A DNA stretch of 64,000 bases from an uncultured Hyphomicrobiales bacterium (lineage in GTDB: Bacteria > Bacteroidota > Ignavibacteria > Kapaibacteriales > Kapaibacteriaceae), in NCBI GenBank assembly GCA_964620125.1, contig CAZUGQ010000007.1, positions 29,795 through 93,794 on the forward strand, given 5' to 3'. The notes under the pieces were generated by a model. It saw only the letters and a list, made by a program, of their open reading frames with translations. It did not search any database and was not told the DNA's origin. Shown in pieces: positions 870 to 51,272 of this stretch (position 1 is its first letter; the number at the start of each line of letters is the position of its first letter). A program made the position numbers and the translations under genes.

Positions 870-1698
870 ACCGACCGCCCCGTTGTGTGGTAATCTGTAA
901 TACGTAAAGTCCAGCTGGCAACACATTCACAGGAACCGACACTGTTGACGTTCCGGATGGCACCTGAATTCCAAGCGACCGATACACTACATTGCCGATT
1001 GCATCCACGAGCTCAACATCCAACTCTTCGGAATATGGAGCACGAACCTCAAAACGAACAGCATCATGAGCTGGTTGTGCTCCTACAGTTCTGACCGACG
1101 TTGGTGCCGCAAGTAGGATCATGTTGCGTGGACCACATACGTCAACCACTAGTAGTCCAGGATCATGCAGAATCATCACCGGTTCCTGGCTCCACAGCTC
1201 CGCATTACTAAAGCCGAATGCAGTGCTGTCTGGAATAGCTGGCAGTGCAGTACCCTCCATCACCACGATGGTACCAGGCAAACCAAAGTCTAACCCAAGC
1301 CCCCTCACAAGAACATTCAGCTTGCCATTGGCATAGGTGTGCTCCACTTGTGTACCAGGAAGATTGCCGGAATACACTGTGTCTACATTGTAGTGTAGTG
1401 GCGAAAACGAAACCTGAAAACTGAGAGAATCGGGACGTGCTGCCGTGATATTGTTTTCCCAGTGGATTGGAACAACAACTTTCTCGCCCGCTGCTACCTG
1501 GTATTCATCAATGCGGAGTCCCAACAGATGTTCAGGGGGGGGGGACGTAGGGTAGACCCACACCACGAACACCGATGTCGGTACTTGTGGTACAGCGCCC
1601 AGCTTCCACGAGTGATAAGGTTGTGGTACTGGGGCCCACGAGCGTAGGCTCGAACTGGAGTAGTACGGCAATGGTATCGGCTGGTGGTACCTGGACAC
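841..1698 (-). CDS. C-terminal fragment of a large T9SS-secreted protein, out of frame with 1532..5062 and probably the same gene interrupted at a G10 tract
   Basis: Its C-terminus (...LPAGLYVLQITTQRGGRFSHPVLVVQ) resembles a Por/T9SS C-terminal sorting domain. It overlaps the upstream ORF by 166 nt in a different frame, and the overlap spans a 10-nt homopolymer. Confidence 0.55.
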   Translation of the reverse strand: MSRYHQPIPLPYYSSSSLRSWAPVPQPYHSWKLGAVPQVPTSVFVVWVYPTSPPPEHLLGLRIDEYQVAAGEKVVVPIHWENNITAARPDSLSFQVSFSPLHYNVDTVYSGNLPGTQVEHTYANGKLNVLVRGLGLDFGLPGTIVVMEGTALPAIPDSTAFGFSNAELWSQEPVMILHDPGLLVVDVCGPRNMILLAAPTSVRTVGAQPAHDAVRFEVRAPYSEELDVELVDAIGNVVYRSLGIQVPSGTSTVSVPVNVLPAGLYVLQITTQRGGRFSHPVLVVQ

Positions 1699-4600
1699 CG
1701 ATCACATTGTCCAGCAGCAGCCACCCGGCTGCACTGGCTAATTGAAGATCAAGAATTGTTCGCGCTTCCTCGGTGGGATTAATGATGCGCGCAGCCACCT
1801 GTGTGGATCGTCCAACAACCACGCTGCCAGCATCAACAGGGTCAGGCTCAAGAATCAAGCCTCCGTCAATGCGTTGAGCCGACAGGCGAATGGTGATGCG
1901 ATTGCCGCAAGTCTCGTCAACCAAGGTCATGACGGCTGCAGATGTACCGATAGGCACACGCGATGGATCGCAAGTAACATTCACGGCCACGCTACCAAGG
2001 CCTGCAAGCGTAATGGGCAACCCGCTAACGGTAATCCATGGAGGTAACGCTGAAGCATCAAAGCCAATCGTCACCTCCGAAGTGTCTTTGTTCGTGATAG
2101 TGATAGTCTGAACAACTGGCGGATCGCAGGCACGGACATCAAGGTATTCGAGTGACTGAGGACTAGCAGTCCACGCAGCATAGGCTGCCGAACCAGTTAG
2201 CGGGATATCAACAACGGATCTTGTGCCTGACGATTCTAGCTGCAGAATGGCTTGTGCTTGCCTTTCGACTCTTGGATCGTAGGCAACAACAACCCATTCC
2301 GACGTTCCCTGAGGTAAGGAGAAAGCAGTTGTTGGACGAACCACAGTAAAGGCTGAGGGTACGGGGCTGATCACCGGGGTGTGGAAGGAAGCATCGGTGC
2401 TGTTGGCATGAATCTCCACACTGTCTATTCTAACAGCCGAATCGCATCCAGCATCGAAGTGTAATTCTGGAGTTTTCACCTGAAACTCGTTGCTCAGTGC
2501 CCTAAGGAGTATTTGCGCCGACGCAGTTGCCGCGCATGGACCTGAAAGGGTTACCAGGAGATCCGTTGAATATGTTCTTACGCTTGATGGAGTCCATGAT
2601 ACTGTTACGTCAATGGTTCTTCCAGATGGCAGGGTAACTGGTGGAGCAAAGTTCACAGAGAACTCCGCATCCATCTTTAGTGGTGCGATGCTACCGATGA
2701 CAACCGTTTCCATTCCTCCGTTTCGAATAGTCACTTGTCTCACCAGCGACTGACCTACGCTTACGGAGTCTATCAATGGATTCGGAGAAAGCTCAAGACT
2801 CAAGGATCGAATCTTTGCAGTGACTATCACAGCCACAGCCGTATCGCACGGTGTTATTCGCACGAGGATCGTATCTGAGACTACTCCAGTCCCGGTTGCA
2901 GTCCAGGTAAAACGATTACTCCTGTTCTCGCCACGCAACACTACCCTGGTACCCGACTGCAGATTGTTGATTCTTGCAGAGTTTTCGGTGGTTGTATATC
3001 TGAATAGTGATGGACCTTGATTGGAGATGGTGAAGCTTGTGTCTACAACTTCGCCTTCGCATACTTCTCCCAGATCAATCGCCAGGGGGCTAACGGAAGA
3101 GAGAACACTATTGGAGGTAGCGCGCAGGTTTACGTTCCATGGTTGTACGGAACCTCGTGCCGTTGTGGCATCATCATGATTAATCTGTAGGACGCCCGAA
3201 ACATCGGAGGAAGACGGAGTGACAACGATCAGGATGGTATCCGATTCTCCTGGCAGCACTCGCCATGGTGGTTGAGAACCTGCATTGCGCAGCCCAGTTA
3301 TTTGAAAGCTCTCCGGTGAAAGTCCGAGCACATTCATCGAGTACACCGTTAGGTCCATGTTGCCGGTGTTGGCAAGGGGAATGCGTAGCGTGTCGGACAT
3401 CTCGCATCCAATGGAAGCACTGGCAGTGGTATCTGACCTGATAATCGGCGATAGTCCGTATGCGCGTATTGTAATGTGTGTATCGCGCTGGCAGGGTGCA
3501 AGAGTTACCCGAAACCGAGCCTGCACCCAACCCGTGTCGGCCAGGGTGCCCCCTATAAAGGATTGTGCAACCGGTGGGCCTGCATTGATGATGGTAGGAT
3601 ATTCAGCGGCAAGACTTAGCTGCGTGGAGCCGCTATCGCGTTGTATGTCCACGATTGACTCAAGCGGTGGTGCTGCAGCCGTCCACTCGAGAACACGATT
3701 TATTGGGCTACCCGCTCGATGGTTAAACTGCACCAACGTGTCGGTAGGTTTGGCATTAAATGTTCTACGTTCACCTTCAAGCAGCACTGCCAGGGTGGTA
3801 TCTGGTTCTCGAATTCTGATAACCATCGATGCTTGCCTTCTGCCCGCAGCAAGAGCGCGGTACTCAACGATGACCCTGGTACGTGAGCATGCGGGCAAGG
3901 GGTCAGGGATCACATTTACAACCCTGTACATCCAGGCATGTTCACCCACGAGTTCGATAGACCACGGACTGGAGGAGAAGTTCACGTTGTTCACGTACAC
4001 GGTGTCGTACAGGTTTGAATCTGGGCATGCACCAAGAAACAGCAGAACGGAGTCACTGAGCTCGCGAAGGGGTTTTGCTAGGTAGTAGACGCCTTCTCCA
4101 ACCACCCAACCGGTGCTATCGTTTAGGAAGAAGACATCGTCCATGTGTCTACCATTCAAGCCACAATTTTTCAAGCTCCATTCACTTGCCAACGCTCCGC
4201 CTGTTTCCGTATACCAAACGTTTGCATTGGTACCTACAGCCCATGCCTTTTGATTGGTGATCATGAAAACGCCGAACATGTCGTTACCGGTTTCCACGTG
4301 TGACCATGTTGCTCCATCGTCGTGGCTTACGCGCATTCCCCCGCCTGAGTATCCACCTGATGCGCAATTGCTTGTTGCGCAGCTAACCATAAACGAGTTC
4401 CCAGATCGCGAGATTTCCTCGTGCCATGGTGAGTTGGCACCTGTGTAGGCTTCAACTGACCATGTAGCTCCGCTATCCTGCGACTTCCACAACGTGCCAT
4501 TGCCAGCGGCAAACACCGTACTAGCAGGAAGGTCGGGTTGCCACAGTGGATCGGCAAGATTCGATCGTTTGACACTCGTGTCTTGGTATCGCGTCCACGT

Positions 4601-5062
4601 AGACCCGCCATCAACTGTCCGGTAAAAGTTATTTACGCCACAGCCCCCTCCCGTGAGCCATCCATCGGTTTCCGATCGGAACCAGCCTCCCCAGATGTTT
4701 GTTGGCACGGTATCGAGTGTAAGGCGGGACCAGGTGGCACCACCATCGGTAGACTTGAAAGCGCCACACGGGCCGGAGCAGAATCCGACGGAGGTACTCA
4801 GGAACTGGATGTATTCCAGGTGGCACGCTGAGTCGGTTTGCGCGCCTTGCCAGGTGCGGCCACCATTGGTGGTGCGGATAACGTACCCATGATATCGGTC
4901 GCACGCCCAGCCGTAGTTTTGGTTGCTGGGAAGGAAGAAGATGTCGAGGTAGTATCCTGCGTCATAGGGAGCAGGTATCTGTGCGGGAGCCCATCGCTGC
5001 GAGAGAGCGGGAAGGGTTCCGCACAGAAAGAGTAGAGAGAGGATGGTCCTCTGAACGATCAT
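1532..5062 (-). CDS. large secreted protein with an N-terminal BNR/Ycf48-like beta-propeller followed by repeated Ig-like domains, probably fused with 841..1698 as one T9SS cargo of about 1460 aa
   Basis: Signal peptide MIVQRTILSLLFLCGTLPALSQ. Repeated S-x-D-x-G-x-T-W motifs (TNGGRTW, TDGGATW, VDGGSTW, QDSGATW, HDDGATW) are typical of BNR/sialidase-like propellers. A long beta-rich repeat region follows. The ORF stops directly after the C10 tract (PPP*). Confidence 0.6.
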   Translation of the reverse strand: MIVQRTILSLLFLCGTLPALSQRWAPAQIPAPYDAGYYLDIFFLPSNQNYGWACDRYHGYVIRTTNGGRTWQGAQTDSACHLEYIQFLSTSVGFCSGPCGAFKSTDGGATWSRLTLDTVPTNIWGGWFRSETDGWLTGGGCGVNNFYRTVDGGSTWTRYQDTSVKRSNLADPLWQPDLPASTVFAAGNGTLWKSQDSGATWSVEAYTGANSPWHEEISRSGNSFMVSCATSNCASGGYSGGGMRVSHDDGATWSHVETGNDMFGVFMITNQKAWAVGTNANVWYTETGGALASEWSLKNCGLNGRHMDDVFFLNDSTGWVVGEGVYYLAKPLRELSDSVLLFLGACPDSNLYDTVYVNNVNFSSSPWSIELVGEHAWMYRVVNVIPDPLPACSRTRVIVEYRALAAGRRQASMVIRIREPDTTLAVLLEGERRTFNAKPTDTLVQFNHRAGSPINRVLEWTAAAPPLESIVDIQRDSGSTQLSLAAEYPTIINAGPPVAQSFIGGTLADTGWVQARFRVTLAPCQRDTHITIRAYGLSPIIRSDTTASASIGCEMSDTLRIPLANTGNMDLTVYSMNVLGLSPESFQITGLRNAGSQPPWRVLPGESDTILIVVTPSSSDVSGVLQINHDDATTARGSVQPWNVNLRATSNSVLSSVSPLAIDLGEVCEGEVVDTSFTISNQGPSLFRYTTTENSARINNLQSGTRVVLRGENRSNRFTWTATGTGVVSDTILVRITPCDTAVAVIVTAKIRSLSLELSPNPLIDSVSVGQSLVRQVTIRNGGMETVVIGSIAPLKMDAEFSVNFAPPVTLPSGRTIDVTVSWTPSSVRTYSTDLLVTLSGPCAATASAQILLRALSNEFQVKTPELHFDAGCDSAVRIDSVEIHANSTDASFHTPVISPVPSAFTVVRPTTAFSLPQGTSEWVVVAYDPRVERQAQAILQLESSGTRSVVDIPLTGSAAYAAWTASPQSLEYLDVRACDPPVVQTITITNKDTSEVTIGFDASALPPWITVSGLPITLAGLGSVAVNVTCDPSRVPIGTSAAVMTLVDETCGNRITIRLSAQRIDGGLILEPDPVDAGSVVVGRSTQVAARIINPTEEARTILDLQLASAAGWLLLDNVIGVQVPPADTIAVLLQFEPTLVGPSTTTLSLVEAGRCTTSTDIGVRGVGLPYVPPP
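1535..1544. repeat. G10/C10 homopolymer at the junction of two overlapping ORFs; a +/-1 indel fuses them
   Basis: Read directly: ttca-gggggggggg-acgtag. On the minus strand, frame A reads ...YVPPP*. Frame B reads ...TSPPPEHLLG and continues to the T9SS CTD. Confidence 0.8.
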
Positions 5063-5135: not shown

Positions 5136-5200
5136 GTGCCGGGGACTTATGTGCCGGGTACTCAGCTGGGCTGAGTACCCGGCACATAAGTCCCCGGCAC
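5136..5200. repeat. perfect 31-bp inverted repeat (stem 5136-5166/5170-5200, 3-nt loop); each arm is two tandem 15-bp units of the GTGCCGGG repeat family
   Basis: Left arm gtgccggggacttat|gtgccgggtactcagc. The right arm is its exact reverse complement. It lies between the purA stop and the start of the 1532..5062 gene. The core octamer CCCGGCAC/GTGCCGGG occurs 4 times here. Confidence 0.85.
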
Positions 5201-5207
5201 TATCCTT

Positions 5208-6816
<1,609 letters not shown>

Positions 6817-42973: not shown

Positions 42974-45346
42974 CTACAAGCGGTACAATAAGCCAAGGTT
43001 GATACCGAATGACTGGAGAGTCCAGTTTACGTCACTAGCCATGGATCCGAATCTCTTTGTGTAGAGAGTCTCCATAAATGCCGATGCTCGGAACGAGATT
43101 GGATAGCTGAATCCAATTCCACCGAGCAGTTCGAACCCAAGAGTGCTTAGGGTAGTGACTGATTGACTACCAACCGGTTGAGAGGTTCCGCCTCCAGGCA
43201 ATTCCCATCCTGTTGGTCGCAGTACTTCGCGTTGTGTTTCAGCAGAATTGCCCAGCGCTACCGCGATGTTAAGACCACCTGTGATGTAGAAGAAACGCTG
43301 CAAAAACCACTGCGCCATACCCCCAAAACGAAGGTATGAGTTTGTGAGAGCAACGGTTGTTGCTTCTTGATAGGGAATGAACTGGCCGCTGGTTAAATCG
43401 AACACCGTCCCGATTGTGGTGTCCGGTGAGATCAACTTTCCGCCAACGCCAGCAACGGACAGGCGTGCCTGTAGGATTACGCTAGGAAGCACGCGCCTAC
43501 CTAACAGTAGGCCGAAGCCCCATCCCGGTCCTTCACTCTCGCCAAATTCGGCTTGACCTGATAGGTCGCCAATGGAGGTAAAGTCTGCTGTATGAACGTA
43601 GTTGGCAAGCGACCCATACGCACCAACGATCCACGTTTCTTCGCCTACGCATTGCACCAAGGGATCATCACTGAGAGAGAACACGTACCGTTCTATCCGG
43701 CTATCAAACACGTAGCATACAGCAAACTGTGATCGGTTTCCCGCCACGTCCAGTGCTTCAAGTACAAGGCGTCCGCTCTTACCGGACACTGCTGGTCGTA
43801 CACGAATGGAAACTTGTGGGGCACCTTGTTCGACCTTTGGGATGTCGGCTTCGAGTGAAACGGTGTTTACGATGTTCACTGCGGCAAGGCCACGATCCAT
43901 AACCCGGTCATCACGCAGCGTCACAACAAAATCGTCTCGTACGTTAGCGGCTTCAGCCATCGGTGGCACTGTATCGACCAATTTGTTCAGTTCCAGAAAA
44001 CTCTGGCCAGCCATGTTGCCATAGGCATCGTAGGCGTCACTCTTGAAGCCAAAGCCATACGAATACAAGCCAAACGGGACTTCGGATCGGATAACGTGGG
44101 TACCGTACGGTATCGGAACCTGAGCAATGGAATATCGGCTTTCACCCAGGACGGTAAAGAGTGTGGAGTCAACTCGACGGCCATTTAACCGAATCTGCCC
44201 AATGCTTTCTGTTGGAGCAACAACGTTGATGTAATGGTGCCAGTCTCCACTTATTGGCGTTGCAAATCGATACTCATTCAGAAACTGCTGAGTAGGACTT
44301 ACAAGAATCATCATTGGATCGCCTACACTATCGCCATTCTTAAAGCCTTGTGCAAACTGCGCCACAAGAACTGGCTTGTCGGCCGTGATCTGAACATGCT
44401 GCTGCGTGTTCAGACTCTCGTAGAATTCACCAGCGTTGAGAACAACGGCAAGTCGACTATTCTCAAACACTCGAGTATTGTTTTCTGAGGCAACAACGCG
44501 AAACGTATAACGTGAACGTTCCTTGAGCATGCCAACATAGTAATGCAATCCCCACGCCGAAACGGGAGGCAATTGTTCAATAAGGTGATTGCACGCCTCT
44601 ACTTTCGGTGGCACGTAGGCACAATTATGTCCGCTAAACACCGATATTTTTTTGTTGGCCACGATGCGAGTTCCTGTAAGGTCGCATTGCCCGATACTTT
44701 CCCATCTGGCTCCAATGCTGTAAACATCACCTTGGCGCAAACGAATCTTGAATGGCTTTCCCGCAGGGCGTCCTGTTGACGTTGTAGCTGTTGGTGTGAT
44801 TTCGACTTCCGTGTCGTTTTCCGTTGCAACAATTGATAGAGCAGAAAGCAGATCGCTGGCCAACTTGGTATACCCAATAGCTCGATACTCGCGGCCGATA
44901 ACAGAGATTGGAAGCCCTACGAAGGCGTCGGTGGTTTGGTATCGACTATTCAGTCCGTACACAGAAATCGCGGTATCGGCTGTAATGTGAACAGCCAGTC
45001 GTTCTGCTGTTTCCAAGGCACGGAGTTGGGCTCGTGCTGGAATCTGAACCGGTACAACGCTGTTTGCCCGCACTTCGATGGTGGACTTATAGCCAATCTC
45101 TTCAATTTCGATTTCTACTTTAGCATCGAAGCTACTTGTAATGAACAGTTGCAAACGCAGAGCTGCACCACGATTCTGAACGTCGGTTCCGGCTGATCGG
45201 AAGTTCTTCATGAAGCATAGCCAGAACTCCTTACCCTCAGAATTTTTGGTGATGTATTCTGGATCACGAGCACTTGTTAGGGATGTGAGGCTCACCATCA
45301 GCAGCAGACTCAACGGTACGAATGCCATGCGGGTGATCATGTTCAC
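42974..45346 (-). CDS. IgGFc-binding-like N-terminal domain protein with a C-terminal beta-barrel-like outer-membrane region
   Basis: Signal peptide. KEFWLCFMKNF and CAYVPPKVEACNHLIEQLPPVSAWG are paralogous to 26310..29324 and 49401..50714. The C-terminal about 250 aa are Gly- and aromatic-rich with alternating hydrophobic residues, ending ...FGINLGLLYRL. Confidence 0.6.
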   Translation of the reverse strand: MNMITRMAFVPLSLLLMVSLTSLTSARDPEYITKNSEGKEFWLCFMKNFRSAGTDVQNRGAALRLQLFITSSFDAKVEIEIEEIGYKSTIEVRANSVVPVQIPARAQLRALETAERLAVHITADTAISVYGLNSRYQTTDAFVGLPISVIGREYRAIGYTKLASDLLSALSIVATENDTEVEITPTATTSTGRPAGKPFKIRLRQGDVYSIGARWESIGQCDLTGTRIVANKKISVFSGHNCAYVPPKVEACNHLIEQLPPVSAWGLHYYVGMLKERSRYTFRVVASENNTRVFENSRLAVVLNAGEFYESLNTQQHVQITADKPVLVAQFAQGFKNGDSVGDPMMILVSPTQQFLNEYRFATPISGDWHHYINVVAPTESIGQIRLNGRRVDSTLFTVLGESRYSIAQVPIPYGTHVIRSEVPFGLYSYGFGFKSDAYDAYGNMAGQSFLELNKLVDTVPPMAEAANVRDDFVVTLRDDRVMDRGLAAVNIVNTVSLEADIPKVEQGAPQVSIRVRPAVSGKSGRLVLEALDVAGNRSQFAVCYVFDSRIERYVFSLSDDPLVQCVGEETWIVGAYGSLANYVHTADFTSIGDLSGQAEFGESEGPGWGFGLLLGRRVLPSVILQARLSVAGVGGKLISPDTTIGTVFDLTSGQFIPYQEATTVALTNSYLRFGGMAQWFLQRFFYITGGLNIAVALGNSAETQREVLRPTGWELPGGGTSQPVGSQSVTTLSTLGFELLGGIGFSYPISFRASAFMETLYTKRFGSMASDVNWTLQSFGINLGLLYRL

Positions 45347-46104
45347 TTAAGCACCATGAAAGGATGCAGGTAGGTGCCTGTTGACGTTTGCAGGGACATG
45401 AGGTAAGAACCCTGAGCCAATTCCCAGGAATTGGCTGCAAAGTCGTAGCTGTTTTCACCGGCACGACCCTGCATTTGTCCTAAATCCAGAATCGTGCGTC
45501 CCTGCATGGTACAAACGGAGAGGTGCACAGGCTGAGCCGACTCCAACATAAAAACGAACGTGCTCTGACTTGAAAACGGATTGGGATAGTTGCCCGTAAA
45601 CCCCTCTGCGGGTGTTGGTATCGCAGGGCTTCCGTCGGCGGTAATGAGACCACTTTGGAATTCGACTGTAGGAACAGGAGTCTTCTCTCTGTCCATCCTG
45701 ATTGGCTGCAAATAGCCGCTGGTGCCCGGTCCATTCAGAAACTCCATCACAAGCATACACACCAATCCATTGGTTGTTGGCTGCACATCCCAACACTCTA
45801 CCGTTAGGCGGCCTCTGGTGCCATCAACAATTGTGTCGGCTCCCACATAAGCCTGAGGACATCGGAATGATGCGTTTGGTCCACCGGTACACCGAACGAA
45901 ACGAATCACATTGGCCGGGTAATCGAACACAAGACGAAGGTGTCCCAGACTGGAGATTGTGCCGGTAACAGGAATCTCCACTATTGACTGCCGTGCGCCC
46001 GACGTAGAGCTTGGCACACTGATCCGCTCCTGAGAATGCGCGGGGTGAACCGCCAGAAGCAGTGAGAGGAGAAGCAGACGTAGGTACGTGGTAACGAGCT
46101 GCAT
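45343..46104 (-). CDS. small secreted protein with a T9SS C-terminal sorting domain
   Basis: Signal peptide. The C-terminus NYPNPFSSQSTFVFMLESAQPVHLSVCTMQGRTILDLGQ...GSYLMSLQTSTGTYLHPFMVLK is a classic Por_Secre_tail. ATGA overlap with the downstream gene. Confidence 0.7.
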   Translation of the reverse strand: MQLVTTYLRLLLLSLLLAVHPAHSQERISVPSSTSGARQSIVEIPVTGTISSLGHLRLVFDYPANVIRFVRCTGGPNASFRCPQAYVGADTIVDGTRGRLTVECWDVQPTTNGLVCMLVMEFLNGPGTSGYLQPIRMDREKTPVPTVEFQSGLITADGSPAIPTPAEGFTGNYPNPFSSQSTFVFMLESAQPVHLSVCTMQGRTILDLGQMQGRAGENSYDFAANSWELAQGSYLMSLQTSTGTYLHPFMVLK

Positions 46105-46133: not shown

Positions 46134-48128
46134 CTAGAACTCTTGGAGTGAAATCACCTCGTATCCGCTCTCTTTGCGTCCAACAACGATGAGTGAATAG
46201 CTATTACCAAGAGGTCCCAGCACGATGGGAAGTGTGTAAACAAGCTTGCGCTGAGTTGCATCGTACACATACATAGATCCTCTGCGGTCACGTTGAAGCA
46301 CGTGTATGGGAGATGCCGTCGCAAAGGCTACGTCGCGTGCGACTACTTCCGAGCTGTCGGGATGTTGTGCATACACAGTATCATACGTCACAGAAACCAG
46401 CGGGAGGTCGAATGTGGCATTAATCACACGTCTATCACTCTGGCCAGGTATCTGGCGAAGAGGGTCGGAGGTAATGTTTACGATTATTTCTTGCGAACCT
46501 TGTTGCGTATAGATCAGCAAGGTTCGCTGACCTTGCAGCGATGCCGCCTGAATGGTAGCACCTGCCGCACTTACCACTGCTGATCCATAGGCAACGCTTG
46601 TGGTTAGAGAATTGCGGTAGAATACGTTACCATTTTCGACCACGGATGCAATCGTTGTATTAACAAAATCTGATGTTGGCGAGCCATTCACGAAGCGGAA
46701 CAGAGCAGCATCCGTCTGTTGTTGGATCGTTCCTGGCTGATCGCGTTCTGCGAGAAGATAGGTGACGGGCAAACCGTCTGGTGTTTCGCCTACAACGAGT
46801 AAGTACGCTTGATCGGGCTGAACCGTACCAACCGAAGCATGGAGGAGAGCCGTCGGGAGTACGGACGTTGTAACCGTGAGGGGCAAGGCGCCTGGCTCGA
46901 TCACTGTCGGATTGCTGATACTGCCATAGGTGAGATCTGCTGCTAACGTTGTACCCGAGCTAACAGATGTAGCACTCGAGGCATCGGTTCGAGCACCGGC
47001 GCTAATCGTTATCTGCCTATTGCGAGGTGCAGCATGAACAGTGCGGATAATTGCCTTTCCGGCAGTGTTGAATAGCACTGGAAGTGGTGGTACGATGATC
47101 ATTGCTTTTGTGTCGCTGCTAGTTGCAATCACTGTATACAAACCTCTCAGTGTGAGCGACGTGCTGTCAGTCGCCGTTCGGCCATCCTGAAACCGAAGCT
47201 CCACGACGTCGGCTTCTTCTTGTTCACACGTAGGAACCGAAGCATAGGCTGAGAGTACGAAAGGTTCGACGTTCGAGGCAACCACCTGCCCAGTTCGCGT
47301 CAAACTCAGTGTTACTGGTGAACCACTCAGGTTGCAAACACGCATGTTTGCATCACGCATGTTCACTGGAAGAAAAGGTCGGTCCGCTGCATTGGTAAAA
47401 TCCGACTCATTCAATAGCATGAATTCAACGTTAGAGTTCCCAGTTGTTCGATGGGCAATAATCGTGTAGGGCGTGTACTGGTCTAGCGTGCACTCAAAGG
47501 TGCCAATTGGAATGGTTTCTCCAAATTGAATCTGCTGAATGCTGAACACCGCAGTACCAGGATTCACTTCTTGGTAGAGTGAAACGCTGCGGTATGATAG
47601 CGGTGTTGCTGTCAGTGGTTTACCATTAGGACACCCTAGGCGTACCTCGAACTGCACCGTTGTATCGGGGAACATGTTTGCCACGCGAACCTGTGCAACG
47701 GGTAGGGTTGTGAGCGAGCGGTTCGCGTTGATAACAACGATCGTATCAAACCTATCCTGGTTGTTTGGTAGCCCGGTGGTAAAAACATCATACACACTTT
47801 GTTGTGCGAATCGTACTCGGTCCGGAGTTGAAAACTCCGTGACTCCACCTGCCAAGATTTGCACGTAACTAGAATCAGCCGGTGCATTCACCGTAGCACT
47901 CATTCTACTAGCGGGCACTACTTCAGTCTGGTAACCAAGTTCCAGGACCATGCGCCTATCGGTGCCATCAGGTACCAAGTTGAGCATTCTAACAACGATT
48001 CTGGCCGAACCCGGTGGTGGATTCACGATGTTAGGATCCTCACTTGCACAGCCGCCAGCCAAGCAGATCATGACAGCAAGAGCGGTTGAAAGTGGGCTTC
48101 GGTACAAGTGTTGCGATTGAGTAGTCAT
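46134..48128 (-). CDS. large hypothetical lipoprotein, first gene of a three-gene surface-protein operon
   Basis: Lipobox LAGGCAS. 664 aa, beta-rich, Thr/Ser/Val-rich. The start codon lies 5 bp from the tandem repeat array. Confidence 0.55.
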   Translation of the reverse strand: MTTQSQHLYRSPLSTALAVMICLAGGCASEDPNIVNPPPGSARIVVRMLNLVPDGTDRRMVLELGYQTEVVPASRMSATVNAPADSSYVQILAGGVTEFSTPDRVRFAQQSVYDVFTTGLPNNQDRFDTIVVINANRSLTTLPVAQVRVANMFPDTTVQFEVRLGCPNGKPLTATPLSYRSVSLYQEVNPGTAVFSIQQIQFGETIPIGTFECTLDQYTPYTIIAHRTTGNSNVEFMLLNESDFTNAADRPFLPVNMRDANMRVCNLSGSPVTLSLTRTGQVVASNVEPFVLSAYASVPTCEQEEADVVELRFQDGRTATDSTSLTLRGLYTVIATSSDTKAMIIVPPLPVLFNTAGKAIIRTVHAAPRNRQITISAGARTDASSATSVSSGTTLAADLTYGSISNPTVIEPGALPLTVTTSVLPTALLHASVGTVQPDQAYLLVVGETPDGLPVTYLLAERDQPGTIQQQTDAALFRFVNGSPTSDFVNTTIASVVENGNVFYRNSLTTSVAYGSAVVSAAGATIQAASLQGQRTLLIYTQQGSQEIIVNITSDPLRQIPGQSDRRVINATFDLPLVSVTYDTVYAQHPDSSEVVARDVAFATASPIHVLQRDRRGSMYVYDATQRKLVYTLPIVLGPLGNSYSLIVVGRKESGYEVISLQEF

Positions 48129-48133
48129 GGTTT

Positions 48134-48283
48134 GCTATGAACCCGGCACCTATGAACCCGGCACCTATGTTCCCGGCACCTATGTTCCCGGCACCTAAGA
48201 ACCCGGCACCTATGTTCCCGGCACCTATGTTCCCGGCACCTATGTACCCGGCACCTATGTTCCCGGTACATTCGTCCCCGGCA
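48134..48283. repeat. tandem array of about ten 15-bp repeats (consensus CTATGTTCCCGGCAC; minus-strand reading GTGCCGGGAACATAG)
   Basis: Read directly: nine near-perfect units plus one degenerate unit, with variants AA/TT/TA at two positions. It occupies the divergent intergenic region between the lipoprotein operon (-) and prfA (+). Confidence 0.9.
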
Positions 48284-48361
48284 ACGTATGGCAAGTTGCG
48301 ATATTTTTGCCCTTTCATCCCTGCCCAAGCCCCCTTAACCTTTAATGTTGCACACGTTAAC

Positions 48362-49411
48362 GTGGAAGAACGCCTTCAACACCTGCTTGATGAGTTTGCT
48401 GCTGCAGAGCAGGCCTTGAATGATCCCGATGTTGTTACTGATCAACAAAAACTGCGTGATGCATCACGTTTGTACAAGGCTCTGCTACCAGTTGCCGAGG
48501 CCGCTCGTGCATACCTGAAGCTCAACGAACGTTTGCAGGAAGCTCGGGCAATGGCTAATGATCCTGCGCTGGATCGAGAGTTGAGAGACCTTGCATACGA
48601 AGAACTTCATGCCCTTGAAGATCAAAAAGCTGCAGCCGAGGCCGAACTTCTCGTCCTGTTGGTTCCCAAAGATCCAAATGACCTGAAAGATTGCATCGTT
48701 GAAGTTCGAGCGGGTACGGGTGGTGATGAAGCTGCGTTGTTTGCGGGTGACCTGTATCGTATGTACGTACGATTCGCTGAACGGCAAGGATGGGCGGTGG
48801 ATGTAATAGACTTCACGGAAGGTGAGCGCGGTGGCTATAAAGAAATCATCTTCGCCCTAAGTGGAAACGAAGCCTATGGTATGATGAAGTATGAAAGCGG
48901 TGTTCATCGTGTGCAACGAGTACCTGAAACAGAAGCTCAAGGCCGTATCCACACAAGTGCTGCTACAGTAGCCGTGCTGCCAGAGGCAGAAGAAGTCGAC
49001 GTGCAGATAAACGAGAGTGATTTGCGAATCGACATCTTCAGGTCAGGTGGCAAGGGAGGCCAGAATGTGAACAAGGTAGAAACCGCCGTTCGCATTGTTC
49101 ATAACCCATCGGGCATTGTTGTGCAATGCCAGGACGAGAGATCGCAACTCAAGAATAAAGAGAAGGCCATGAAGGTGTTGCGCGCCCGCCTGTACGAAAT
49201 GGAATTGGAAAAGCAACAGTCAGCTGTTGCAGGTTCCCGCAAAGAAATGGTGAGAAGCGGCGACCGTTCCGAGAAGATTCGCACCTATAACTTTCCGCAG
49301 AACCGCGTTACAGACCACCGGCTTGAAGGGGAACACAAGAATCACCAGTTGGATCAAGTCATCAACGGAGACTTAGCTGATTTGATAGCTGCCCTGCGCG
49401 CTACCAACTAG
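48362..49411 (+). CDS. prfA: peptide chain release factor 1
   Basis: PKDPNDLKDCIVEVRAGTGGDEAALFAGDL...RVQRVPETEAQGRIHTSAATVAV...SGGKGGQNVNKVETAVRIVH carries the GGQ motif and the PxT-equivalent (PET). The start is set at the GTG giving MEERLQHLL. The ORF track extends it to 48137 through the repeat array. Confidence 0.88.
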   Translation: MEERLQHLLDEFAAAEQALNDPDVVTDQQKLRDASRLYKALLPVAEAARAYLKLNERLQEARAMANDPALDRELRDLAYEELHALEDQKAAAEAELLVLLVPKDPNDLKDCIVEVRAGTGGDEAALFAGDLYRMYVRFAERQGWAVDVIDFTEGERGGYKEIIFALSGNEAYGMMKYESGVHRVQRVPETEAQGRIHTSAATVAVLPEAEEVDVQINESDLRIDIFRSGGKGGQNVNKVETAVRIVHNPSGIVVQCQDERSQLKNKEKAMKVLRARLYEMELEKQQSAVAGSRKEMVRSGDRSEKIRTYNFPQNRVTDHRLEGEHKNHQLDQVINGDLADLIAALRATN

Positions 49412-50714
49412 CTACATGGCCATACGCGTCGTACGACCCATCTAGATTACCGGATTGGGCAGTTGCCAAAACCAACATGTTATAACCACTGGATATCGTT
49501 GCCTCGGCTCCCGTCATCGGTACATTCAATTGAACAAGATCCGTTCCAATGTTCACCACTGCCGGATCTTCAATGAACGAGCCGTTTACCGTGAGCGACG
49601 GAAGCGCCTCCGGCCGAGTAACGATAACAAGCGTCGGCGTCCACGGACGGGCTACAGATACATTTACAATGGCCGATCTGGTCCAACGGTTTACCGGTGG
49701 AACAAGTATCATACAGGGATCTCCAGCCAGGTTACCATCCTTTTCGGTTTCAGATTTGAAGCCCTCAGAGTACATGGCAACAAGAACTGGATTTGATGCA
49801 CGCAATCGTATTGGCACCGAGCTTGCAATTTCCTTGAACTCTCCCTGTCCAAGCACATGAACTTCGGTACTGTCGGCGTTAACAGTTACGTTCGTTTCCG
49901 GTCTTGTGCCGATGATTCGAATTCTCGTGCGAAGTCGGCCCGGGAAGGCAGGAATAACGTAGTCCGTTCCCAATCGTTCATACGGAGGTGTGTGCTCAAG
50001 CAAGTAGTTGCAGGCCTCTACCTTTTCCGGGATGTATGCACAACGATGACTTGACATGACGGAGATTTTCCTGTTCGCCAGCACATGAACACCTGTAAGG
50101 TCAAACGCGGGATCCTTAGCCGGCAGCCCTTCATTTGTATCCCGCGCAATTACCGCACACTGCCCTGCTTGCAACGCATACTCGCGAGTTTCACCGTCTC
50201 TAAACGTAACCTTGATCGAAGTGAAGTCTTCATACGCAGCAACAGTTGCTGTTGAAATGAGATCTTGTGCCATAGGAGAATAACTAGCTAGCCAGTAGTC
50301 ACGCCCGCACATTTCCGAAGGAAGCAGTGATGTCGATTCAGTGGTCTGGTACTTTGAATAGGTTATCGAAATCACAACCGGTGAGGTTGACCGAATGCGT
50401 ATCGTCTTGCTACCAATGCCAGTCCTGTTTGCAACAAGTGACTCAGGTATGTCAACATGCTGAGCTGTTCCGCGGTCAACGTGTACCGTAGTAGTCCAAC
50501 CAATTCCTTCGCTTGTTAACTCGACATCTGCGGCAGAAACAGCACTAATCGTGGCAACTAAATACTCTGGATGTTTTGAACCCCCATCCGATGTGCTGCG
50601 AAAGTTTTGAGGAATGGCAAAAAGAAAGTCCTTACCGGCAAGACCTTGGCCGGATGACAACACCGGTACCAGAAAAACACATACCACAGATATCAAACAT
50701 TTCACGGCCGACAT
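49401..50714 (-). CDS. IgGFc-binding-like N-terminal domain protein (short paralogue, no anchoring module)
   Basis: Signal peptide MSAVKCLISVVCVFLVPVLSSGQG. GKDFLFAIPQNF and CAYIPEKVEACNYLLEHTPPYERLG are paralogous to the 42974 and 26310 genes. It ends at ...GSYDAYGHVASW, where the paralogue continues. Confidence 0.55.
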   Translation of the reverse strand: MSAVKCLISVVCVFLVPVLSSGQGLAGKDFLFAIPQNFRSTSDGGSKHPEYLVATISAVSAADVELTSEGIGWTTTVHVDRGTAQHVDIPESLVANRTGIGSKTIRIRSTSPVVISITYSKYQTTESTSLLPSEMCGRDYWLASYSPMAQDLISTATVAAYEDFTSIKVTFRDGETREYALQAGQCAVIARDTNEGLPAKDPAFDLTGVHVLANRKISVMSSHRCAYIPEKVEACNYLLEHTPPYERLGTDYVIPAFPGRLRTRIRIIGTRPETNVTVNADSTEVHVLGQGEFKEIASSVPIRLRASNPVLVAMYSEGFKSETEKDGNLAGDPCMILVPPVNRWTRSAIVNVSVARPWTPTLVIVTRPEALPSLTVNGSFIEDPAVVNIGTDLVQLNVPMTGAEATISSGYNMLVLATAQSGNLDGSYDAYGHVASW

Positions 50715-50810
50715 ACTTCCTCCTACGGAGTTATACCAATGTAGACAAACCATCTCACCGTTGTTCACTATGTGTGTTGCAACACGAATATTTCCCCGTT
50801 ATCTTCGCGT

Positions 50811-51272
50811 ATGGGAGAATACCTCCGAAGCCGACTAAAACAGCAACGATTTTCCTCTGTTTACCAGGAGGCATTCCTTAGCCTGCTTGTTGCTGCCGAT
50901 GCGCTCCAACGCCGAGTTTCTGAATTATGTGAAGCACATGGAATTACACACCCACAGTACAACGTACTCAGAATTTTGCGGGGTGTGTACCCAGGCGGAC
51001 ACCCCCGGTGCGAAATCATTGACCGCATGGTACATGTAAGCCCCGACGTTACTCGTTTGATCAACCGGCTCGAAGCAAGTGGCTTGGTTGTTCGGGGTAA
51101 GTCCGACGACGACAAAAGGCTATCGCTTACATACATCACACAGAGCGGGCTGGACCTGCTAGAACGAATGCGGCCGGACGTTGAATCCATCGAGGCAGAA
51201 ATGGCTGCCAAGATTTCACAGCAGGATGCCAGCACACTTACTAACATCTGTGAGTCCATTGCGCGTGATTGA
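50811..51272 (+). CDS. MarR-family transcriptional regulator
   Basis: Winged-HTH region: QYNVLRILRG...RCEIIDRMVHVSPDVTRLINRLEASGLVVRGKSDDDKRLSLTYITQSG. Confidence 0.8.
   Translation: MGEYLRSRLKQQRFSSVYQEAFLSLLVAADALQRRVSELCEAHGITHPQYNVLRILRGVYPGGHPRCEIIDRMVHVSPDVTRLINRLEASGLVVRGKSDDDKRLSLTYITQSGLDLLERMRPDVESIEAEMAAKISQQDASTLTNICESIARD

Follow-up and report, generated by a model that had tools for sequence, protein, structure and literature searches.

An array of 15-bp tandem units separates the start codon of a three-gene surface-protein operon from prfA in an uncultured bacterium, and no such array occupies this position in 17 syntenic relatives. Within the window, the 64,000-nucleotide stretch of DNA that was analyzed, the same 15-nt module is found at a second site in the form of a long perfect hairpin. 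We consider the array to be a minisatellite (VNTR) of this module in the leader of the operon, whose copy number may tune expression stepwise; to this reading, which is built on sequence comparison, we give about an even chance.

The repeat array and its counterparts in relatives

The array and the operon beside it have the following layout.

48135..48269: nine units of 15 bp in tandem; + strand CTATG[WW]CCCGGCAC, operon-sense strand GTGCCGGG[WW]CATAG
48270..48284: tenth unit, degenerate, ATTCGTCCCCGGCAA, placed by the register layout and by comparison with relatives
48129..48134, - strand: spacer between the array and the lipoprotein ATG, 6 nt, CAAACC on the operon strand, with A at -3
46134..48128, - strand: DUF4397 lipoprotein, 664 aa, operon gene 1, with a signal peptide and the invariant lipobox Cys27
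45343-46104, - strand: 253-aa protein with a T9SS C-terminal sorting domain, operon gene
42974-45346, - strand: 790-aa IgGFc_binding-domain protein, operon gene

Read in register, the array (48135-48284) consists of nine good units arranged head-to-tail and a degenerate tenth, as the sequence-only reading had described it, and Tandem Repeats Finder recovers it at 48135-48266 with a period of 15, 8.8 copies, 91% matches and a score of 201; the copy number comes from one metagenome assembly (MAG) and may be off by a few units. The unit consensus is CTATG[AA/TT/TA]CCCGGCAC, and the variants follow one another in the order AA AA TT TT (CTAAG)AA TT TT TA TT(GGTAC). Four units are identical, and the longest perfect run spans two units. 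Tandem Repeats Finder also reports a 45-bp higher-order period over the array (94% matches, score 236), and the higher match than at period 15 indicates duplications of three-unit blocks. The array is the sole strong tandem repeat of the window, all others scoring 44 or less. Allowing up to three mismatches, the pattern CTATGWWCCCGGCAC matched 15 times against 4.4 expected, a number reached in 0 of 100 shuffles. Two details of the earlier description need correction: an ATG had been assigned to every unit, and the fifth (CTAAG) and the tenth have none; and the array, which was said to fill nearly the whole gap, takes up 150 of the 233 bp between the real start codons, the other 78 bp being the promoter and leader of prfA.

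Near-identical 15-bp units over 150 bp are hard for de Bruijn assemblers, and the array was read from a single MAG contig of 109 kb. It could accordingly be an assembly artefact, or its copy number could be mis-estimated in a short-read MAG. Against this, the aperiodic order of the variants (AA AA TT TT AA' TT TT TA TT'), the unique syntenic flanks and the related second locus indicate that the array exists and that its exact copy number alone is in doubt, and we judge this explanation very unlikely.

The operon ATG lies at 48128, 6 nt from the first unit, and the array thus stands where the tracts of contingency loci stand, in the promoter, 5'-UTR or 5' coding region of a surface gene. The three-gene surface operon proposed beside the array is borne out by the genes for the DUF4397 lipoprotein, the protein with the T9SS tail and the IgGFc_binding protein, which are conserved in relatives. 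Elsewhere, the window carries the genes of an ordinary chromosome (among others purA, secDF, a class A PBP (PBP1), transaldolase, FBPase, SOD, accD-like), and no transposase, rep or par genes were found in the 64 kb, where about 46 ORFs were scanned for families. The iteron and partition centromere class (parC/parS-like) was rejected for this array because the window is a housekeeping chromosome without rep or par genes, and readings of it as a G-quadruplex, i-motif, iteron, centromere, CRISPR or Tn7 end were dropped for want of any supporting feature.

For comparison, we used 17 syntenic loci, with lipoprotein identities of 35-61% and RF1 identities of 66-83%. Judged by the names of homologues, the organism belongs among Kapabacteria, Ignavibacteria and Chlorobi-like Bacteroidota. 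In every relative with enough flanking sequence, prfA and the DUF4397 operon are kept as a divergent pair. In the 17 relatives the distance from start codon to start codon is 27-111 bp, against 233 bp in the window, and neither the array nor any 15-bp repeat occurs in that gap in any of the 17. Where independent assemblies of the same relative were available, the array-free spacer was identical between samples. The absence of the array from all 17 loci, together with their shorter gaps, indicates a young insertion or expansion specific to this lineage. Its promoter-side edge is marked by the tenth unit, as the 3' part of that unit, CGGCAA, runs on into sequence that the closest relatives have kept (CGGCAACGAAC). 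An origin in situ from an ancestral TTGCCGAGCCATCAT (L001) was considered and set aside, since about 7-10 of 15 positions match and such an origin is not separable from insertion of the module beside a similar sequence. No second assembly of the source species was found: exact-protein look-ups of window proteins gave no other contig, the clusters of the public proteins P0001, P0047 and P0145 have one member each, on one contig, and two adjacent array units had 0 hits in JGI metagenomes and IMG/VR.

Repeats of other kinds are present in several relatives. In the distant relative represented by L134 and L135, an independent 34-bp tandem duplication of 2.3 copies (5846-5922) spans the prfA start codon, and the prfA intergenic region has thus gained a tandem repeat more than once. 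Locus L129 carries about 24 copies of (GAATAGC)n directly past a stop codon, interrupted by a small hairpin (264-432), and a long hairpin just 3' of prfA whose arms are built of 7-mers, (AATGACY)n/(RGTCATT)n (4720-4833); it pairs a direct array with a repeat-built hairpin as the window does, with an unrelated unit. Tandem 92-bp elements lie downstream of prfA in the Chlorobi/OLB-like relative L127 (3623-3930 and 4495-4720), each of them containing a hairpin GGGCGACC...GGTCGCCC.

Beyond prfA, a 455-aa IgGFc_binding gene (49401-50768, - strand) separates prfA from marR and shares 11 nt with the prfA stop end. Given that marR directly follows prfA in L121, L153 and L154, this paralogue looks like a local insertion or rearrangement. 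A perfect palindrome GTGTTGCAACAC (50774-50785) overlaps the start of the marR-family gene (50772-51272) and is conserved upstream of marR in a relative (L129 4699-4713); it is a likely autoregulatory operator. At 48345-48355, the leader of prfA contains a near-copy of this palindrome, ATGTTGCACAC.

The prfA start and the divergent promoter

Two features lie between the array and the body of prfA.

48292..48309, + strand: invariant block CAAGTTGCGATATTTTTG in the alignment of 13 loci, with the -7 box of Bacteroidetes/Chlorobi type, TATTTTTG, at 48302-48309
48362..49411, + strand: prfA (RF1), 349 aa, from the conserved GTG start (VEERLQHLLDEF...), with PCRF and RF-1 domains

The block CAAnnTGCGATATTTTnG (48292-48309 of the window) is invariant across the 13 aligned prfA loci, and the TATTTTTG within it is a perfect match to the Bacteroidetes -7 element TAnnTTTG. 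This element occurs 10 times in the window, against 31 expected under uniform composition, and one copy alone lies near the locus. In Flavobacterium, the final G of the -7 element TAnnTTTG is at -5 (PMC6847099), and a TTG/TANNTTTG-like RpoD motif was reported by dRNA-seq in Chlorobaculum (10.1101/172254). Six relatives (L129, L131, L132, L133, L138, L146) have the prfA GTG only 3-7 nt after the G of the -7 box. This spacing matches the published -5 geometry and marks the block, which lies downstream of the array, as the promoter of prfA; leaderless prfA mRNAs are predicted for these six relatives. In the window, transcription of prfA is predicted to start near 48314, which leaves 30 bp to the degenerate unit on one side and 48 nt to the GTG at 48362 on the other.

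Of the 17 relatives, 16 share the GTG start (VEE[RK]L...), and 6 have an in-frame stop upstream of it with no alternative prfA start. These observations bear on whether the array encodes an N-terminal (M-F/N-P-A-P)n extension of RF1. The frame is open as had been noted, from ATG 48137 for 75 codons in the prfA frame, and an automated public model of RF1 starts inside the array. This model (P0145) has 414 aa, with its start at ATG 48167 and 65 extra residues. However, the -7 box lies between the array and the GTG, so the ATGs of the array would not be on the prfA mRNA, and no relative has such an extension. Five of the six frames through the array are open, as expected for a 15-bp unit, and the peptide reading is therefore a by-product of the unit. 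The doubt that had been voiced about translation of the array is thus strengthened by the conserved GTG and the invariant -7 box; the extension is close to refuted, and the comparison indicates that RF1 does not include a translated array. In a parallel case on the other strand, the public model of the lipoprotein (P0001) has 630 aa and starts at Val35 (48026), whereby the signal peptide and the lipobox Cys27 are lost.

The divergent promoter of the operon probably has its core in the block at 48292-48309 as well, shared with prfA. Neither a sigma-70-like site nor a Bacteroidetes -7 box was found inside the array or in the 6 nt before the operon ATG, and in the relatives the lipoprotein gene has no upstream -7 box of its own; their operon ATG lies 2-45 nt from the reverse complement of the invariant block. 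On the simplest reading, the spacer between prfA and the operon would be a compact bidirectional promoter. Bidirectional promoters with symmetric AT-rich cores are reported to be common in prokaryotes (PMC10268837, PMC12825309). Because the operon ATG stands beside the shared block in relatives and the array lies between the two here, the array is most likely the 5' leader of the operon, and the operon mRNA most likely begins with a leader of about 160 nt that is almost entirely (GUGCCGGGAACAUAG)n. A leader running through the array had been proposed earlier, and the missing promoter motifs inside the array and the position of the ATG in relatives support it by inference. The array RNA was not significantly more structured than shuffled sequences (z = -1.76), and no specific leader structure is indicated. 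Rfam gave 0 matches in the whole window at gathering thresholds and 0 in 47900-48600 at E <= 1. Sigma-54 sites at the unit junctions (cGGCAC-N5-TTcC) were rejected because they lack the GC that a -12 element requires and because the TT is missing from the AA units.

On the operon strand, each unit could also be read as a minimal uORF, GUG-CCG-GGA-ACA-UAG, that couples translation of the operon to RF1 activity. Ten GUG...UAG units are in frame with the lipoprotein AUG, with 6 nt between the last UAG and this AUG. RF1 alone reads UAG, and prfA is the divergent neighbor. Several points weigh against such coupling. The units at 5136-5200 have no stop, so UAG is not a feature of the family, and the relatives keep the synteny of prfA and the operon without any such uORF. 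Initiation at GUG in GC-rich repeats is unlikely where A-rich unstructured leaders are used, and a start and a stop within one 15-mer are not improbable by chance. The mini-ORF pattern is probably incidental, and the coupling is highly improbable.

A second site of the 15-nt module

The module, written as GTGCCGGGNACNNAK or as the pattern GTGCCGGGNAC, recurs once in the window and as a stem core in two relatives.

5136..5200: second member of the module family, an inverted repeat of perfectly matched 31-nt arms around a 3-nt loop
L140 4801-4832: hairpin GGTGCCGGGGACC/GGTCCCCGGCACC with the module stem core (GTGCCGGGGAC), just 3' of prfA
L154 13770-13797: hairpin GTGCCGGGATC/GATCCCGGCAC with the module stem core, between convergent genes

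Each arm of the site at 5136-5200 contains two 15-nt units, GTGCCGGGGACTTAT GTGCCGGGTACTCAG. The site follows the purA stop at a distance of 7 nt and precedes the gene of a large secreted protein by 73 nt, and its hairpin (-70 kcal/mol, z = -12.9) is the most prominent inverted repeat of the window. The core CCCGGCAC occurs 12 times in the window, against 2.1 expected, and every time in either the array or this site. When the 30-nt arm was compared with the array, 23-25 of 30 positions matched at every two-unit register, and elsewhere in the window at most 18 of 30 did. The gap downstream of purA is 145 bp in the window and 50 bp in the nearest relative, where there is no hairpin, which indicates that this site is a lineage-specific insertion too. 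A relaxed scan for single modules over about 320 kb of relatives returned noise only, save the hairpins of L140 and L154, which are terminator-like and both at gene 3' ends.

In the same part of the window, a secreted BNR/Ig-like protein (1532-5062, - strand) has 1176 aa, about 230 aa fewer than all its homologues (about 1400 aa), whose ends are formed by a T9SS sorting domain. In the window, that domain is carried by a 285-aa ORF of a different frame (841-1698, - strand), which overlaps the end of this gene. There is a frameshift near 1532-1698, which may reflect a pseudogene, an assembly error or recoding.

The second site can be weighed in two ways. In one, each unit would be an operator bound by a dimeric protein at the 11-mer GTNCCSGGNAC, and the iterated sites would co-regulate the surface operon and the secreted-protein gene. 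The dyad skeleton GTNCCNGGNAC matches 10 times against 0.92 expected, with every match in the two sites; both sites precede genes of secreted or surface proteins, which share one strand, and the units occur in direct and inverted orientation, as in ribbon-helix-helix operators, whose heptads are found in both orientations. Iterated operators of the ribbon-helix-helix type include those of omega of pSM19035, the metboxes of MetJ and ParR-parC. The array resembles them in its contiguous short repeats by a promoter and in a quasi-palindromic core, and differs in having a 15-bp unit instead of 7-11 bp, no cognate regulator gene and no plasmid or partition context, and in that its second site is shaped like a hairpin of RNA or ssDNA. 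The dyad is broken in three units (GAACCCGGCAC), and a spacing of 15 bp would place successive sites on nearly opposite faces of the helix. No isolated copies are present at other promoters in the 64 kb, and no candidate regulator is nearby except a MarR with a different palindrome of its own. At 5136-5200, a hairpin of 31 perfectly paired nt, whose complementarity extends to the non-core positions, stands 7 nt past a stop codon, and the hairpins of L140 and L154 are likewise at gene 3' ends, which points to a function at the level of single strands or RNA. The family of regulator sites suggested by the sequence-only reading thus gains one further copy of its motif in the window, a weak argument in its favor, and this copy, a hairpin after a stop codon, as in the relatives, fits a hairpin or REP-like module better than a regulator site. 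We regard iterated operators as improbable.

In the other, the module looks like a primarily hairpin-stem element, REP- or terminator-like, and the array like a direct-repeat amplification of it. The REP, REPIN and BIME extragenic palindromes reportedly described by Bertels & Rainey 2011 and by Gilson et al. offer a likeness: a short GC-rich extragenic module, an inverted-doublet hairpin just past a stop (5136-5200), restriction to a lineage, and similar hairpins in related genomes. The site at 5136-5200 is palindromic, extragenic and at a gene 3' end, as REP/REPIN hairpins are; the direct-repeat array is not, and ten head-to-tail units without spacers are not a REP or BIME arrangement. REP/REPIN elements are present in tens to hundreds of copies per genome and have a cognate RAYT, whereas the module has two loci in the 64-kb window, its hairpin is perfect where REPs are imperfect, and no RAYT gene (IS200/IS605-like Y1 transposase) is found among the roughly 46 ORFs scanned in this window.

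The motif TNNGNNCCCGGCACNTNNGNNCCCGGCAC was also searched in GTDB genomes, where among the matches listed there were high-GC actinobacterial and other genomes, mostly with 15-bp periodic arrays. In the unrelated Kiritimatiellaeota MAG WRJS01 (L009, L027, L044, L055), a hairpin GCAGGGCGGAAGCCCTGC is followed by 2-6 tandem 15-bp units GCTCCCGGCACTTGC; the family is dispersed over at least six loci that differ in copy number, and the shared core is forced by the search pattern, implying no homology. A crude look at the ORF context of these arrays (65% GC) added no information.

Copy number and expression of the surface operon

The GC-rich 15-nt module, which also forms a hairpin stem elsewhere in the genome, may have given rise to the array by tandem amplification, with replication slippage or unequal exchange as the mechanism and three-unit blocks among the segments duplicated. 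The 45-bp super-period and the degenerate edges would be traces of this growth. The array stands between the block at 48292-48309, the compact divergent promoter of the ancestor, and the ATG of the surface operon. It abuts the -30 region of the prfA promoter and is most likely transcribed as the repetitive 5' leader of about 160 nt. Gain or loss of 15-nt units would then alter the length and structure of the leader and tune operon expression in steps. If the array is transcribed, hypermutable and of influence on expression in this manner, it would act as a rheostat of the hmw1A type and not as an on/off frameshift switch.

In Haemophilus influenzae hmw1A/hmw2A, (ATCTTTC)n repeats likewise lie between the promoter and the start codon of a surface gene (PMC12721329, PMC8262952); those of hmw1A are transcribed in the leader, and expression is graded by repeat number (PMC12721329). 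The likeness is one of position and repeat form. The unit of the array described here is 15 bp, in about 10 copies of lower purity, against 7 bp in 11-30 or more copies in hmw1A; neither a G-rich partner arm nor a long hairpin in the leader is predicted; and the organism is an environmental member of the Bacteroidota group, unlike the host-adapted pathogen that carries hmw1A. Tandem repeats in promoters of Mycobacterium tuberculosis vary in copy number within populations in a phase-variable manner and are obscured in short-read assemblies (PMC12817950). These are likewise longer-unit tandem duplications in a promoter region, but they duplicate promoter elements, whereas the unit here contains no promoter motif.

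Several observations temper a role of copy number in tuning expression. The copy number comes from the sole assembly of the species, the purity is moderate with a longest perfect run of two units, 15-bp units slip far less often than repeats of 1-7 bp, the transcription start of the operon is itself inferred, and the predicted structure of the array RNA does not significantly exceed that of shuffles. A neutral insertion with no effect on expression would fit the data equally well. Such a selectively neutral minisatellite would be a slippage product of the hairpin-derived module, whose copy number has no regulatory effect. The array is absent from 17 of 17 syntenic relatives, so that the operon and prfA work without it, and the units are partly degenerate. 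In addition, the intergenic DNA of relatives has unrelated lineage-specific repeats (7-mers in L129, 34 bp in L134, 92 bp in L127), which suggests mutational noise in the clade. On the other side, translation initiation in this phylum relies on an unstructured A-rich leader and not on Shine-Dalgarno pairing (PMC6847099), and a 150-nt GC-rich insertion right before the start codon is for this reason unlikely to be neutral for expression. The interior units are also highly homogeneous, which argues for recent turnover. Taken with these points, neutrality is a serious but less probable explanation than tuning of the operon by copy number.

A broader version of the tuning model may be entertained, in which a REP-like dispersed hairpin module of Kapabacteria-group genomes seeds head-to-tail arrays, and the array here, as a hypervariable leader, would be a contingency locus that makes a conserved T9SS-linked surface operon phase- or dose-variable. 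We see an outside chance for it. If it were true, a free-living environmental bacterium would possess a contingency locus, and the repeat family would be a source of new ones.

The consequences differ in their reach. Public annotation already suffers from the array: one gene model makes RF1 65 aa too long, and another deprives the lipoprotein of its signal peptide. From the comparison of relatives emerges a divergent promoter of prfA that is very compact and invariant, with leaderless prfA mRNAs predicted in several relatives. The array itself may be taken as a further example of a VNTR in a regulatory region, here linked to a dispersed hairpin module. To our knowledge, contingency loci have hardly been described in uncultured, non-pathogenic organisms of the Bacteroidota/Chlorobi group. 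If the copy number of the array varies, a member of this group would have a surface operon tuned by repeats, and a repeat module of the hairpin type would have given rise to a regulatory minisatellite.
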